A DNA stretch of 38,034 nt from a virus. Taxonomy: Duplodnaviria; Heunggongvirae; Uroviricota; Caudoviricetes. The translations under genes and the position numbers were made by a program. The stretch lies in IMG/VR virus record IMGVR_UViG_2534681658_000022; one strand, written 5' to 3'. Position 1 is the first letter of the stretch. Each line of letters starts with the position of its first letter. The notes below the pieces were generated by a model that did no database searches, had not been told where the DNA came from, and saw only the letters and a list, made by a program, of their open reading frames with translations. Below, piece by piece: positions 22,874-28,075 of the stretch.

Positions 22874-23545
22874 TTAAAAACCAAGCTCATCTCTGATTCT
22901 TGGGAATTTTTTCATTACTCGAATATCAGTTAATAAATGCCAACGCCAAAAAACAGAAAATGGATATGATACATTACACATTGGCTTTAGCTTATTCTTG
23001 GCCTCTTGGATTTCTTGTTCTGTGCTTCGATCACTGACAAGTTTCATTCTCCAACCAGTAAAGTAAAACAATTCATCTTGTAACTTCTCTGAGAGATTTG
23101 CTCTTGTAATGCCCCTCAACCCCGTACTCGAAGAGTTAAAACACTTATCTAATAATTTGACTGTATTTAAAACCTTTCTACTTGGTCTTTTTCTTCTTGG
23201 GTATACTTGAACACCACTCGTTATAGCGTTCCCTGCGAGATGAACAATCTCACTGAAAACATCAACATCACTCTTTGTGCAATCAAGTAAGTTTTCAAAA
23301 GAATCACTTTTAATACTATTGCATCGACTGCAAGCTAAAAATAGATTGTTCCAATCATATTTGAGCTCATCAAGATCACGATGTGGAATAAAATGTTCTA
23401 TCTCTGGATCCATAAGATTACCTTGCTCACAGAGATAACATTTTCCATGAAATATTTCGTCTAAAGCATTTACAACTGTTTTATGGTTATATACTTTTCT
23501 CGACAAGCATTGAGGTGCAGGAATATTTCTAGTAACATTAAACAT
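22874..23545 (-). CDS. HNH endonuclease, Septu PtuB-like
   Basis: 223 aa with an N-terminal HNH motif (HGKCYLCE...EIEHFIPH...NLFLACSRCNSIK). AT-rich. Overlaps the upstream ATPase gene by 8 nt. Confidence 0.75.
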   Translation of the reverse strand: MFNVTRNIPAPQCLSRKVYNHKTVVNALDEIFHGKCYLCEQGNLMDPEIEHFIPHRDLDELKYDWNNLFLACSRCNSIKSDSFENLLDCTKSDVDVFSEIVHLAGNAITSGVQVYPRRKRPSRKVLNTVKLLDKCFNSSSTGLRGITRANLSEKLQDELFYFTGWRMKLVSDRSTEQEIQEAKNKLKPMCNVSYPFSVFWRWHLLTDIRVMKKFPRIRDELGF

Positions 23546-24776
23546 CGTCTTCCCTTTCGCTATAATCTAAATATTTACTCTTAGCGATCATAAAAGCTGC
23601 TTTTGAACTTTTATCAAGAAAATCAATACTCTTCTGTAACGTTTTCATTATAGAATGAAATCTATCGTCGAAGACATTATTTTCTACTAAAGTCATTAAT
23701 TCTTTAACTAATGCATTTAGCTTATCCGAAGATACATCCTCACCCAACAATCCCTTTATAATTGCTGTGTAAGAATACAATGATAAATCACCCATCTGAT
23801 CCAATGTTGAGAGATTAAATATAATCGCATCAGATACTGATTGGATTACGAAAGGTGAATGCGTAGAAACAATAAATTGTATTTGCGGAAAAGATGATGA
23901 AAAAAAACTAAATACTTTCTTTTGCAATGTTACATGAAGATGAGCATCAATTTCATCAATAAGTACTATCCCTGTCATATCATGTTTTCTGATTTTATCA
24001 AGCTCTGCTTTTATCAATAAATCAGTATAAATAGAAAGAATTGATGAAAAACCAGATGACAACTTATCAAGTCCAAATGGTTCCTTATTATTTTGTAAAA
24101 GATAGATTTTCAACTTGTCGAGATCAAAATCCATTCTAATACTTTCATCTTCAAAAAGTTCTTTTAAGTCATCATTAATACTCTCAATAATATCAAAGGC
24201 TCTTTTATAGTCATCATCCTTGCCCACTCCCTTACTGACTAAAGCATAATTCCACAATGTAACTATGTATCTTTCAAAATACATACCAGCATCAATCTTA
24301 GAATTATTTCTCTGTGCGTTCCCATACTCAGTTAACAACAAATCGAGGCTGCTAATCTTACCATCATTTTTTATTTTCGCTTCTCGAATAGCAGGAAATA
24401 ATCTTATAATTGATTTTTTCTTTTTTGCAGCAACCCTGAAATCAACCACATCATTAAAAGTAATATCAAAGCTCTCAAATTCTTTTAATTTTTCTTTCAG
24501 TCTCTCAATTTCTTCGTTTAAATAGCTATAATTACCATCCCCTCTATTTGAATACTTTAAGTTTTCTTGACTGGAATTCAATTCCTTTTGTAGCTGCTCC
24601 TTAGTATAAGGATCATGTGAATTAATCGATTTTTCTATAAACTCATAAATATTCTCGATCAACCTAGTTTTACCAGAGCCATTATCTCCTGATATTATTA
24701 GATTCTTACCATCAAGATTTAATGTGTAAGGCTCATCGTTCCTTTTAAAGAAGATAGTTTCGATGAAATGTCGCAT
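23538..24776 (-). CDS. ABC/AAA-type ATPase, Septu PtuA-like
   Basis: Walker A GDNGSGKT, Walker B/D-loop VLIDEIDAHLH, and STHSP motif. Start set at the ATG preceded by GGGAGG; the tracked ORF starts at 24791. Confidence 0.75.
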   Translation of the reverse strand: MRHFIETIFFKRNDEPYTLNLDGKNLIISGDNGSGKTRLIENIYEFIEKSINSHDPYTKEQLQKELNSSQENLKYSNRGDGNYSYLNEEIERLKEKLKEFESFDITFNDVVDFRVAAKKKKSIIRLFPAIREAKIKNDGKISSLDLLLTEYGNAQRNNSKIDAGMYFERYIVTLWNYALVSKGVGKDDDYKRAFDIIESINDDLKELFEDESIRMDFDLDKLKIYLLQNNKEPFGLDKLSSGFSSILSIYTDLLIKAELDKIRKHDMTGIVLIDEIDAHLHVTLQKKVFSFFSSSFPQIQFIVSTHSPFVIQSVSDAIIFNLSTLDQMGDLSLYSYTAIIKGLLGEDVSSDKLNALVKELMTLVENNVFDDRFHSIMKTLQKSIDFLDKSSKAAFMIAKSKYLDYSEREDDV

Positions 24777-24866
24777 TATTCCTCCCGTCATACTTAATAG
24801 CTTTTAGATAATATGACATTACATGTTAGATTTCATCCGTTTTGTGAACATATCCACTGCCGCGCG

Positions 24867-25228: not shown

Positions 25229-25882
25229 ATGAATAAATACAAACTTTTCGCACAGCTATCAAGATATTCATTTGAAGCGCAGATTGATGATTTCGAAAAA
25301 TATATCCTAGGAGCAGGCGGCCAAAACAGAGTTGACTTATCGGAATTAAAAAAAGCATATGAAGATGAAAAAAAGAATGCTCCTGACGATTATATTAATT
25401 ACTTAGAAGACTATTATTCAGAGCAATATGATTTCTTAGTTAACATACAACCAAATATTTTTAATAAATCTGCTTTGGTATCTTTATACTCATGCTTAGA
25501 GCACAACCTAAACGACTATTGCAATATATGTCAAAGGATTGTAAACACCAATATATCAGTAACCGATTTTAATGGTGATGGCATCCACAAAGCAAAAAGA
25601 TATTTAACAAAATTAATGGATATAAACTTTGGCCTGTCACAAGAGTGGCGATTCATGACAGAGTTTAACAAAGTAAGGAATTGCATAGTTCATGCTAATG
25701 GAGACATTAAAAAAATGAGCACAGCTGTAGCCTTAAAAGATATCATTGATAAAACACCTACTCTTTCATTAAACAATGAAAATAATATAATAATCTCCTT
25801 AAATTATTTAAAAGATACTATCACAAAAATTAGAAAACTCTTTCAATGGTTATATACACATCTGGATCAATCATCGAAATGA
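25229..25882 (+). CDS. Hypothetical protein with HEPN-type RNxxxH motif (candidate abortive-infection effector)
   Basis: 217-aa AT-rich ORF with TATAAT at 25203-25208 upstream. Motif RNCIVH at residues about 151-156. No recognisable phage function. Confidence 0.55.
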   Translation: MNKYKLFAQLSRYSFEAQIDDFEKYILGAGGQNRVDLSELKKAYEDEKKNAPDDYINYLEDYYSEQYDFLVNIQPNIFNKSALVSLYSCLEHNLNDYCNICQRIVNTNISVTDFNGDGIHKAKRYLTKLMDINFGLSQEWRFMTEFNKVRNCIVHANGDIKKMSTAVALKDIIDKTPTLSLNNENNIIISLNYLKDTITKIRKLFQWLYTHLDQSSK

Positions 25883-25982: not shown

Positions 25983-26004
25983 CAGGGCTGCTGTTACAGC
26001 CCTG
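25983..26004. terminator. Hairpin between convergent hotspot genes (possible bidirectional terminator)
   Basis: CAGGGCTG-CTGTTA-CAGCCCTG perfect 8-bp stem; no strong T-tract. Confidence 0.3.
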
Positions 26005-26134: not shown

Positions 26135-27001
26135 TTAGATGGCTTTGCTTCGATATTCAATTTCTAAAATCGCCTTTGTCATTGCCGCAATAGTTATAGC
26201 TTCTACCATAGTCAATTCAGGCTTGTTCAAGCTTCCGTGTCCAGCAGTAGGTAATTTGTTACGTAAATCATAAATATCTTTAACAGCATCAATAAGATTC
26301 TTAGGTAATTTTGACATTTTTTCGAACTGTTTAAAAAAACCACCCAATGACTCATTTGCCACATTCGGGTTTTGAGTGATTTCCTTAGCCATAGTTTCTA
26401 AAACATTAGAGGCTGCGTGCAGTGCACCTGCCGGATCATTATTATCCAAGCAATTATTCATTCTATCTATTTGCTGAACGATATTTGGGTGCAATCTCTT
26501 TAAGTAATCACTAGCCAATTCTTCATTGAAATTTTTGACACTTTCAAAAACATCGCAATCTAAATAAAATTTAGGATTGACTGACATCCATGTATATTTC
26601 CAATCATTTTCTAAATTATCTTTTTCCGCAATACGCCTGCCAGTGTCCTGATCTATCTCATCAACATATTTACACATATAATCGGCGTAGTAGTGTAAAT
26701 ATCTAAATGATATTTCTGGGCAAAAATTACTAACTGATGCAAGGCCGCCATATTCTTTTGTAGTAACTGTAGGGACTTCTTCATCACATAAAGATGAGAA
26801 AGTGGTTCTTTCCCAAAATTCGCCCAACTCTTTTTCTTTCCTAGTTGCCATACCAGCTATCATATTGATGCTTGAGAGCAAAACTACACTCTGATAGTAT
26901 CGAGGACATCTGTATGAACTAGCATATGGGCATATTGATGATGCTTTACGATTAATACGCTCTTTTTCCCACCAATTTTTATCAGGAATAATTCTTTGCA
27001 T
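26135..27001 (-). CDS. Hypothetical protein, Cys-rich N-terminus (uncharacterised hotspot cargo)
   Basis: 288-aa AT-rich ORF, convergent with the 217-aa gene. N-terminal cysteines (CPY...C.RYY...CPE...CKY); C-terminal region with LRNKLPTAGHG. No recognised family; the true start may be a downstream Met. Confidence 0.55.
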   Translation of the reverse strand: MQRIIPDKNWWEKERINRKASSICPYASSYRCPRYYQSVVLLSSINMIAGMATRKEKELGEFWERTTFSSLCDEEVPTVTTKEYGGLASVSNFCPEISFRYLHYYADYMCKYVDEIDQDTGRRIAEKDNLENDWKYTWMSVNPKFYLDCDVFESVKNFNEELASDYLKRLHPNIVQQIDRMNNCLDNNDPAGALHAASNVLETMAKEITQNPNVANESLGGFFKQFEKMSKLPKNLIDAVKDIYDLRNKLPTAGHGSLNKPELTMVEAITIAAMTKAILEIEYRSKAI

Positions 27002-27489: not shown

Positions 27490-27723
27490 TTAATGCAGCC
27501 AGCTGTCGTCTTCCCACACCTTCTGCATAATTTTCAGCACTTGTTTTCTTTCTTCGTCCAGTTGCAGTCCGGTCAGTTCCACACCGTTAGAGCTACCTTT
27601 GCGGATACGAATTACCGTTTTGGGATACAGGGGGCGCAGATTGCGGTAAAGCTCGGATTCAAGGGCATCCAGGGTAGACTGGCTAATCTTCTGCTCTTTA
27701 TCGATCATTATTTCAATGCGCAT
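27490..27723 (-). CDS. DinI-family protein (Tum C-terminal-like)
   Basis: 77-aa product MRIEIMIDKEQKISQSTLDALESELYRNL...VWEDDSWLH matches the DinI fold signature. GAGGTGA RBS. Hairpin terminator just downstream, about 27455-27485. Confidence 0.75.
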   Translation of the reverse strand: MRIEIMIDKEQKISQSTLDALESELYRNLRPLYPKTVIRIRKGSSNGVELTGLQLDEERKQVLKIMQKVWEDDSWLH

Positions 27724-27733
27724 AAAAGTCACC

Positions 27734-27922
27734 TCAGCTGATGACATCCATTGAGCGGTTGTATTCGTGGGTTCTGATTTTTGCCATGAGTTCATCAGTC
27801 AATTCAGAAACCCACTGCAGAGCCAGCCCCTTCTCTTCATCACTACACTCACTAGCCGCTACAAGCTTAAGAAAAAAATCAATGCGCTGGAGCTTCAAAG
27901 ACTCCAAAAAATAGTCCTGCAT
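27734..27922 (-). CDS. Small SOS-regulated protein (possible Tum N-terminal-like antirepressor segment)
   Basis: 62-aa ORF starting MQDYFLESL with GGAGGAAAG RBS, directly downstream of a LexA box; its end overlaps the dinI-like start in another frame. Confidence 0.45.
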   Translation of the reverse strand: MQDYFLESLKLQRIDFFLKLVAASECSDEEKGLALQWVSELTDELMAKIRTHEYNRSMDVIS

Positions 27923-27965
27923 CTTTCCTCCTATAACACCACGAGCAATACTGTATACATGACCA

Positions 27966-27981
27966 CTGTTTATATTTACAG
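27966..27981. promoter_or_regulatory. LexA (SOS) box
   Basis: CTGTTTATATTTACAG fits the CTGT-N8-ACAG consensus and overlaps a TATA-rich -10-like region for the minus-strand small ORF/dinI-like operon. Confidence 0.6.
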
Positions 27982-28075
27982 TATATAATAATCTTACTGA
28001 TGTAAAACGTTTTTTTACGTTCATCAGCCTGATATGCCTGGTATTATTAAGAGCACGAATTGTTAATCCGCGTAA

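Follow-up and report, generated by a model that had tools for sequence, protein, structure and literature searches.

A prophage-borne candidate abortive-infection protein that joins a Cys4 N-terminal domain to an Abi_C-like HEPN domain

Introduction

In Abi_C proteins, two to six residues separate the polar residue from the histidine of the HEPN motif, and in the Abi_C protein SadR, whose motif reads RNEYGDAH, replacement of R, N or H with alanine abolishes both the ribonuclease (RNase) activity and the defence (PMC13590631). Escape mutations from lactococcal AbiJ map to a phage single-stranded DNA-annealing protein (PMC13064643). According to Anantharaman et al. (2013; PMC3710099), the N-terminal domains (NTDs) AbiJ-NTD1-5 follow a pattern in which a constant sensor is combined with swappable effectors, and these authors proposed that the domains detect components of the phage and hold the toxin in check in cis. 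HepS (PDB 9oik), from the Gifsy-1 prophage of Salmonella, shows that a one-protein HEPN defence scheme exists: this lone HEPN protein is activated by a tail-tip protein of a phage and cuts tRNAs in their anticodon loops (PMC13043305). In this study, we describe a gene for a protein of 288 amino acids (aa) in the IMG/VR virus record IMGVR_UViG_2534681658_000022, a stretch of 38,034 nucleotides (nt) that is a P2-like prophage of Escherichia coli and that we call the window, meaning the whole stretch analysed. We consider it probable that the gene encodes a stand-alone, prophage-borne abortive-infection protein of the AbiJ/Abi_C kind, in which an N-terminal domain (hereafter the N-domain) would serve as regulator of a putative C-terminal HEPN RNase.

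Results

The gene and its C-terminal HEPN domain

The coding sequence (CDS), the C-terminal domain and its motif are placed in the window as follows.

26135..27001, minus strand: complete CDS of 288 aa plus stop codon; candidate single-gene abortive-infection protein, based on the open reading frame (ORF) listing, RefSeq, homologues and the ratio of nonsynonymous to synonymous substitution rates (dN/dS)
26138..26491, minus strand: C-terminal HEPN domain of the Abi_C/AbiJ type (residues ~171-288); putative RNase effector
26237..26263, minus strand: putative catalytic motif R247-N-K-L-P-T-A-G-H255 (R-phi-X6-H), based on conservation

In the ORF listing, the frame runs from an ATG to a stop codon. 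RefSeq gives the corresponding CDS in a 100%-identical E. coli prophage as WP_016569949.1, "hypothetical protein", in agreement with the initial annotation, which had called the protein uncharacterised and a possible defence effector; it remains a candidate for that role. The start codon is supported because the homologues open with the same M-x-R-I-(I/V)-P-D, start methionine included, and the alignment is collinear over the full length at identities of 42-97%. Pairwise dN/dS against the E. coli, Salmonella and Pectobacterium homologues is 0.16-0.36, and the ORF is therefore a genuine coding gene. The gene is under purifying selection.

The C-terminal domain has a HEPN fold, with structural alignments that span 105-117 residues (~172-288), and it shows the four-to-five-helix up-down bundle that characterises the HEPN superfamily. 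Abi_C (PF14355), which models the C-terminal domain of lactococcal AbiJ, is the sole Pfam family that matches within this domain. The whole protein scores 18.9 bits against it (E 1.7e-3) and the domain alone 21.4 bits (E 2.8e-4), a weak match is also found in seven of 23 homologues (best E 0.0017), and the cluster representative that is 97% identical bears a precomputed PF14355 label. Judged by these scores, membership of the Abi_C family is sub-threshold but consistent, and the Abi_C/AbiJ lead of the initial annotation is borne out by the fold and by the matches together.

All 13 genome and viral loci have the motif in the form R-(N/S/G)-x6-H-G, without any change in spacing, down to 42% identity. 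Of the 33 closest database homologues, 27 have it as well, and shorter, partial entries are among the six that do not. At least 90% of the sequences in alignment A1 have R247, H255 and G256; relatives without a HEPN domain form part of this alignment. In the model, the motif is located between the third and fourth HEPN helices, where the HEPN motif belongs, namely ahead of the last long helix. The statement in the initial annotation that this region lacks a canonical Rx4-6H is literally right, the spacing being R-x7-H, but it undersold the motif, as R-N-[KLPTAG]-H, with X = 6, falls within the Abi_C definition of R-phi-X(2-6)-H (PMC13590631).

The N-terminal Cys4 domain

The N-domain and the codons of its four conserved cysteines are placed as follows.

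26492..27001, minus strand: N-terminal Cys4 alpha+beta domain (residues 1 to ~170); putative sensor or regulatory module with a putative metal or iron-sulphur (Fe-S) site
26930..26932, minus strand: C24 codon (Cys-Pro); Cys in 318 of 322 family sequences, the other four being gaps
26906..26908, minus strand: C32 codon (Cys-Pro-Arg); Cys in 318 of 322, the other four being gaps; R34 in 309 of 322
26720..26722, minus strand: C94 codon (Phe-Cys-Pro-Glu); Cys in 321 of 322; P95 in 320; E96 in 319
26555..26557, minus strand: C149 codon; Cys in 320 of 322

Structure prediction gives, with high confidence, an alpha+beta domain for the N-terminal ~160 residues, at a predicted local distance difference test (pLDDT) value of 93.5. 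Each of the four cysteines is present in 318-321 of the 322 family sequences, and nearly all of the other rows are gaps; three of the four precede a proline in more than 300 sequences, and the fourth does so in 188. W10, R34, S38, W63, E74, E96, D114, D117 and W138 are also near-invariant. This pattern suggests that the N-terminus probably carries a metal-binding cysteine set that would hold zinc or an Fe-S centre via C24, C32, C94 and C149. The cysteine clusters noted in the initial annotation therefore stand as a likely metal-binding set, but the "CKY" cysteine, C110, is not conserved across the N-domain family (nor is C71), and C149 had been missed.

Residues 1 to ~170 match no Pfam, NCBIfam, PADLOC or PHROG model. 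Even at E <= 1, no Pfam family covers residues 1-113, and a weak DUF5600 match at 114-188 is the only one to a family other than Abi_C. The fold of the N-domain has no match among solved structures or viral predicted structures, and a PDB sequence search with the whole-protein and N-domain profiles returned nothing relevant.

A profile of the N-domain (alignment A2) was scored against 1.84 billion cluster representatives at 50% identity and recovered 480 of them at E <= 1e-3, including 186 at E <= 1e-30; a second search, based on a word index, gave 766 clusters at 90% identity. Of these 766, the best 120 all lack a name or are labelled "hypothetical protein", and no precomputed Pfam domain is attached to any of them. 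The family extends over Proteobacteria, Desulfobacterota, Acidobacteriota, Nitrospirota, Verrucomicrobiota and Bacteroidota. With at least 480 representatives of its N-domain, and full-length relatives in many genera, the protein is not the orphan that it was first taken for. In the carrier proteins, which are 154-819 aa long, the domain is usually N-terminal, and local clustering of the extensions yields 55 distinct groups, nearly all of which are C-terminal tails. In 150 representatives, Pfam identifies tails of TIR_2 (19), TIR (11), CAP12/Pycsar-type TIR (5), DpnII/MboI restriction endonuclease (REase; 3), PLD (2) and HTH_17 (2), together with single cases of protein kinase, GGDEF, Schlafen AlbA_2, SEFIR and TPR. 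In the members inspected, the PADLOC models PDC-S66, PDC-S35, bSEFIR, ThsB and Aga helical-REase cover C-terminal parts only, and the NCBIfam matches are likewise confined to C-terminal parts. We rejected the identification of the N-domain with PDC-S66, PDC-S35 or bSEFIR, as these models match only the TIR, SEFIR or REase parts of such proteins, and the 288-aa protein has no match to any of the three even at E <= 1. The Pseudomonas relatives P0034-38 share the N-domain and then continue into an unrelated C-terminus; the family members P0039 and P0040 are short forms. Because one N-domain heads so many different effector tails, the arrangement suggests a sensor or regulatory module. By analogy with the proposal for the AbiJ-NTDs, the N-domain of the 288-aa protein may sense phage components and restrain its toxin in cis.

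Tails of at most 60 residues are found in 61 of 190 N-domain proteins. Of 63 short tails examined, 17 are a single hydrophobic helix, and ~25 share a motif of ~30 residues, E-x-K-P-x-x-(F/W)-G-(I/V)-x-(L/V)-(N/D)-(L/V)-K...WW-x-R-R. Many members of ~200 aa consist of the Cys4 domain and a C-terminal peptide of ~30 residues, and others end in a single transmembrane (TM) helix (P0044, P0045, P0053, P0068, P0080, P0090, P0094, P0101, P0104, P0116, P0118, P0133, P0142, P0145, P0147 and P0148, among others). The conserved peptide could represent either a minimal effector or a motif for interaction.

Distribution of the gene and its neighbourhoods

The gene is present in 19 records of complete E. 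coli genomes, of which ten carry it intact in P2-like prophages, eight carry it in lambdoid prophages and one, NCTC9064, carries it in an island. The lambdoid copy of ARS-C301 (L002 6239-7105; 97% nucleotide identity) has an in-frame stop at codon 115 and the substitution R34Q; it is the only one of the eight lambdoid copies that was translated, and the other seven are annotated as two CDSs, as it is. This decayed copy adjoins a zeta-toxin family gene, and R34Q affects a near-invariant residue; the decay may reflect a cost of the gene. In IMG/VR, nine loci have the gene, eight of them E. coli-like, and a tblastn search with the protein against 50,697 GenBank phage records found no match. The full-length protein also occurs in Serratia, Salmonella, Hafnia, Pectobacterium, Vibrio, Shewanella, Pseudomonas, Nitrosomonas and Desulfobulbaceae, among others. 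In species-representative genomes, the full-length architecture was found in 12 species (Rahnella, Shewanella, Methylophaga, Nitrosomonas, Pseudomonas, Electrothrix, Burkholderiales, Desulfobacterota, Moraxellaceae, Desulfobulbaceae, Deferribacteres and Kangiella), and the N-domain alone was found in Acidobacteriota, Nitrospirota, Verrucomicrobiota and others. This patchy spread of the architecture fits horizontal transfer.

Neighbourhoods were compared for Shewanella, Pseudomonas, Salmonella, Vibrio, Pectobacterium, E. coli NCTC9064 and ten further species genomes. An all-against-all comparison of the ORFs within 3.5 kb on each side, at 17 loci, found no recurrent neighbour save one integrase pair. 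The gene stands on its own and is not part of an operon, and its surroundings are mobile or rich in defence genes. Its homologue lies beside NACHT and KAP NTPase genes in Pseudomonas, alongside a DUF4145 HEPN gene at a tail-fibre moron locus of a Salmonella prophage, next to ParDE and DUF2971 in Vibrio, and in an integrase-flanked island in Pectobacterium. In NCTC9064, the homologue (L019 7001-7867; 82% nucleotide identity) is carried by a CP4-like integrative island, with an ATP-dependent nuclease and helicase pair on one side and a DUF4297 and AAA ATPase pair on the other; these look like Gabija-like and DUF4297-HerA-like pairs, and the setting looks like a defence island.

In the Vibrio loci (L014-L016), the DUF2971 gene is immediately upstream of the Cys4-domain gene, and DUF2971 is also found one gene away from a 197-aa family member in an unrelated metagenomic mobile element (L020-L024). 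This link, which is seen in two lineages, may be a coincidence or a lineage-specific partnership.

The hotspot in the P2-like prophage

In the window, the gene lies in an AT-rich block at ~22.6-27.2 kb, with a GC content of 0.30-0.39 against ~0.53-0.56 in the flanks. The block is bordered by a P2-type portal gene on one side and by a DinI-like gene and the gene for the replication endonuclease gpA on the other. Besides the 288-aa gene, it holds the following features.

22874-23545, minus strand: Septu PtuB (HNH gene; PADLOC E 1.8e-82)
23538-24791, minus strand: Septu PtuA (ATPase gene; PADLOC E 7.3e-122)
25229-25882, plus strand: ORF of 217 aa, a second, independent HEPN candidate
25983..26004, no strand assigned: GC-rich hairpin with an 8-bp stem and a 6-nt loop, inverted repeat CAGGGCTG/CAGCCCTG

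A 2.6-kb stretch around the 288-aa gene is 100% identical to chromosomes of enterotoxigenic E. coli such as NZ_CP025916, in which the RefSeq order is capsid, scaffold, terminase, portal, HNH endonuclease, AAA ATPase, hypothetical protein (217 aa), hypothetical protein (288 aa, WP_016569949.1), DinI-like protein, hypothetical protein and replication endonuclease. In phage P2, the order at the matching interval is A, orf91, tin, old, cos, with tin and old between gpA/orf91 and cos. The comparison of these gene orders upholds the earlier placement of the gene in the tin/old slot of P2.

The Septu pair takes the portal side of the hotspot (22874-24791, minus strand). In a prophage of E. coli O25b:H4, it is replaced by a gene for a 551-aa KAP-family P-loop NTPase (L003 4287-5939), and both small genes are unchanged; the hotspot therefore stacks independent cassettes. 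We also considered the 288-aa gene as a Septu accessory and rejected this role, as O25b:H4 keeps the gene without Septu and no PtuA or PtuB gene lies beside the homologues inspected elsewhere.

The 288-aa gene and the 217-aa gene are convergent, as first described, and the hairpin, CAGGGCTG-loop-CAGCCCTG, sits in the 252-bp spacer between them. As it lacks a T-run and the terminator scan did not pick it out, a function of the hairpin as a bidirectional terminator is suggested as possible and is not asserted. The promoter and terminator scans gave counts no higher than those in shuffled sequence, and no structured RNA was found in the intergenic regions with Rfam at E <= 0.1. The 217-aa protein carries a separate RNCIVH motif, PADLOC matches it weakly to RTasHEPN (E 5e-5), and UniRef lists its close homologues as "RiboL-PSP-HEPN domain-containing protein". 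The neighbours of the 288-aa homologues elsewhere are not similar to it. In lambdoid prophages of Salmonella and P2-like prophages of Morganella, diverged homologues of the 217-aa protein are encoded by solitary morons.

The interval from the hotspot to gpA contains a DinI-like ORF (Pfam DinI, E 1.1e-21) and a small ORF, at 27490-28024 on the minus strand. As maximal ORFs the two overlap; RefSeq annotates both in shorter form, with 234 and 189 nt.

Discussion

A proposed mechanism

We infer that the 288-aa protein is an RNase with an anti-phage phenotype, that it binds metal, and that its N-domain both senses infection and inhibits the RNase in cis. By analogy with characterised HEPN and Abi_C proteins, the C-terminal HEPN domain would be a metal-independent endoribonuclease that uses R247, N248 and H255 and probably works as a dimer or a higher oligomer. 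In uninfected lysogens, the N-domain would keep this RNase off, and it would perceive a cue of infection, for example a phage protein, a nucleic acid or a change in the state of the cell, possibly through the Cys4 metal or Fe-S centre. After the cue, the HEPN domains would assemble or be released and would then cleave cellular RNA, phage RNA or both, such that translation stops, the infection aborts, and the lysogen population is protected along with its P2-like prophage.

Several observations weigh against this interpretation. The Abi_C scores of 18.9-21.4 bits are under the Pfam gathering threshold of 24, and PADLOC gives the 288-aa protein a weak PDC-S32 match (E 0.008). The spacing between R and H, x7, is one residue longer than in the classical HEPN Rx4-6H, and the loop that bears the motif is the least confident part of the model (pLDDT <50 at residues 254-256). 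The gene is rare, being present in 18 of 5,426 complete E. coli genomes, and among these few carriers eight copies have a premature stop or are split. Finally, promoter-like sites upstream of the gene occur at chance frequency. The HEPN fold, the Abi_C matches, the conserved motif, the swapping of the N-domain among effector tails, the lack of a conserved partner gene, the position in a defence hotspot and the precedent of HepS speak for an abortive-infection protein of the AbiJ/Abi_C kind, which we regard as the probable identity of the gene product.

Alternative explanations

The alternative that survives best is that the gene is a prophage-stabilising or addiction element, or a stress-responsive toxin, in which the N-domain is an antitoxin in cis and the mobile element is the beneficiary. 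An addiction role and a defence role are not mutually exclusive. However, no conserved separate antitoxin gene accompanies the gene at the 17 loci, and the sister architectures, with their TIR, REase, PLD and TM tails, as well as the hotspot and defence-island settings, are typical of immune proteins; we therefore regard this explanation as unlikely.

Little probability attaches to a two-gene system, either toxin with antitoxin or sensor with effector, formed by the 288-aa protein and the convergent RiboL-PSP-HEPN-like protein of 217 aa. Wherever a complete E. coli genome has the 217-aa gene, in nine of nine cases, the 288-aa gene lies beside it, and the pair persists where the KAP NTPase gene replaces Septu. 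However, the nine pairs are at least 99% identical and therefore count as a single cassette lineage, with no independence among them. The lambdoid prophages, NCTC9064, Salmonella, Pectobacterium, Vibrio, Shewanella and Pseudomonas have the 288-aa gene and no 217-aa homologue, and the 217-aa family is found without the 288-aa gene in the Salmonella and Morganella prophages described above. The two families are thus distributed independently, and we rejected the two-gene system as a candidate. Moreover, because the genes are convergent and are separated by a 252-bp spacer with a hairpin, they are not co-transcribed.

We are equally sceptical of the notion that the HEPN domain is non-catalytic and binds RNA or a ligand as a regulator of prophage or host genes, in the manner of MtlR. 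In MtlR, the HEPN motif is kept in only ~60% of members (Anantharaman et al., PMC3710099). In the full-length homologues of the 288-aa protein, R, the polar residue (N/S), H and G are conserved, as expected of a catalytic motif, the spacing is within the range of Abi_C motifs (PMC13590631), and the other partners of the N-domain are enzymatic effectors.

A Tin-like exclusion protein, as the initial annotation had proposed, which would block T-even phages non-enzymatically by stoichiometric binding of a phage replication protein, shares the hotspot of P2 tin and a similar size (288 aa, against 253 aa for Tin), but it is highly improbable, as BLASTP against P2 Tin (AAD03308.1) gave a best E of 16, the 50,697 phage records held no match to the 288-aa protein, and Tin matches no Pfam family, whereas the 288-aa protein has a HEPN fold and a conserved motif of catalytic type.

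Significance of the N-domain

Although the HEPN effector of the proposed abortive-infection protein is familiar, the N-domain appears, as far as the searches of sequence and model databases indicate, to be undescribed. It is widespread, an unannotated family that is attached to many classical immune effector domains. It is conceivable, but we would stop short of calling it probable, that the Cys4 N-domain is an unrecognised and widespread immune sensor, possibly with an Fe-S or zinc centre, that drives membrane-active, HEPN, TIR, REase, PLD or kinase tails and would define a large family of one-gene defence proteins. Should the metal centre do the sensing, for example of redox state, of metal availability or of a bound phage protein, it would represent a new principle of infection sensing. 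The recognition target of the N-domain, once found, would give the trigger for hundreds of TIR, HEPN, REase and TM proteins. A description of the domain would also improve the tools with which defence systems are annotated. The 288-aa gene adds a testable one-gene candidate to the repertoire of the P2 hotspot, and the E. coli version, which is short and resides in a well-studied prophage, is directly testable against standard coliphage panels.

Comparison with known systems

HepS is similar to the 288-aa protein in its one-protein scheme, but it has ~218 aa, no Cys4 N-domain and no detectable sequence homology to the 288-aa protein; its trigger, the tail tip J of a siphovirus, cannot be assumed for the 288-aa protein. 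The same applies to a trigger of the AbiJ type, because the N-domain differs. Two systems from Vibrio integrons were considered by their descriptions: Taranis is an Abi_C protein whose AbiJ_NTD5-like N-terminus does not fit the 288-aa protein, and Esos is HEPN-like. Tin and Old of P2 share the hotspot with the 288-aa gene, in the interval from gpA to cos/portal, and are cargo for lysogenic conversion by which other phages are excluded; the 288-aa protein has no sequence similarity to Tin.

With respect to its N-terminus, the 288-aa protein has no match to the AbiJ_NTD models in Pfam, which we take to be NTD3, 4 and 5, and none of 150 family members matches them at E <= 1e-3. To our knowledge, AbiJ-NTD1 and AbiJ-NTD2 have no public model, and, judged by the published descriptions, the N-domain fits NTD1 (Bcep1808_2091) and NTD2 (BF1118) poorly. 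Typing of NTDs with CDD recognises only NTD3, 4, 5 and Sdh5, and the 288-aa protein would therefore fall in the "no NTD" class (PMC13590631). The logic of AbiJ-NTD1-5 is nevertheless the same, with an N-terminal domain of ~100-165 aa placed on an AbiJ-HEPN domain or on REase, HKD/PLD, TIR or kinase domains (PMC3710099). The N-domain described here has four near-invariant, mostly Cys-Pro cysteines and a mixed alpha+beta fold, whereas the descriptions of AbiJ-NTD1-5 mention no conserved NTD cysteines, and NTD1, given as "mostly alpha-helical, ~140 aa; fused to HKD, kinase, REase", is a poor fit (PMC3710099).

The closest comparison is with the AbiJ/Abi_C proteins themselves, Lactococcus AbiJ (Abi-859) and Staphylococcus aureus SadR (PF14355). 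Unlike these proteins, the 288-aa protein scores under the Abi_C gathering threshold. However, all are single polypeptides of ~280-290 aa in which a variable N-terminal domain is followed by a C-terminal HEPN domain with R-phi-X(2-6)-H, RNKLPTAGH (X = 6) in the 288-aa protein corresponding to RNEYGDAH in SadR, and the 288-aa gene, like the AbiJ/Abi_C proteins, is carried on mobile elements.

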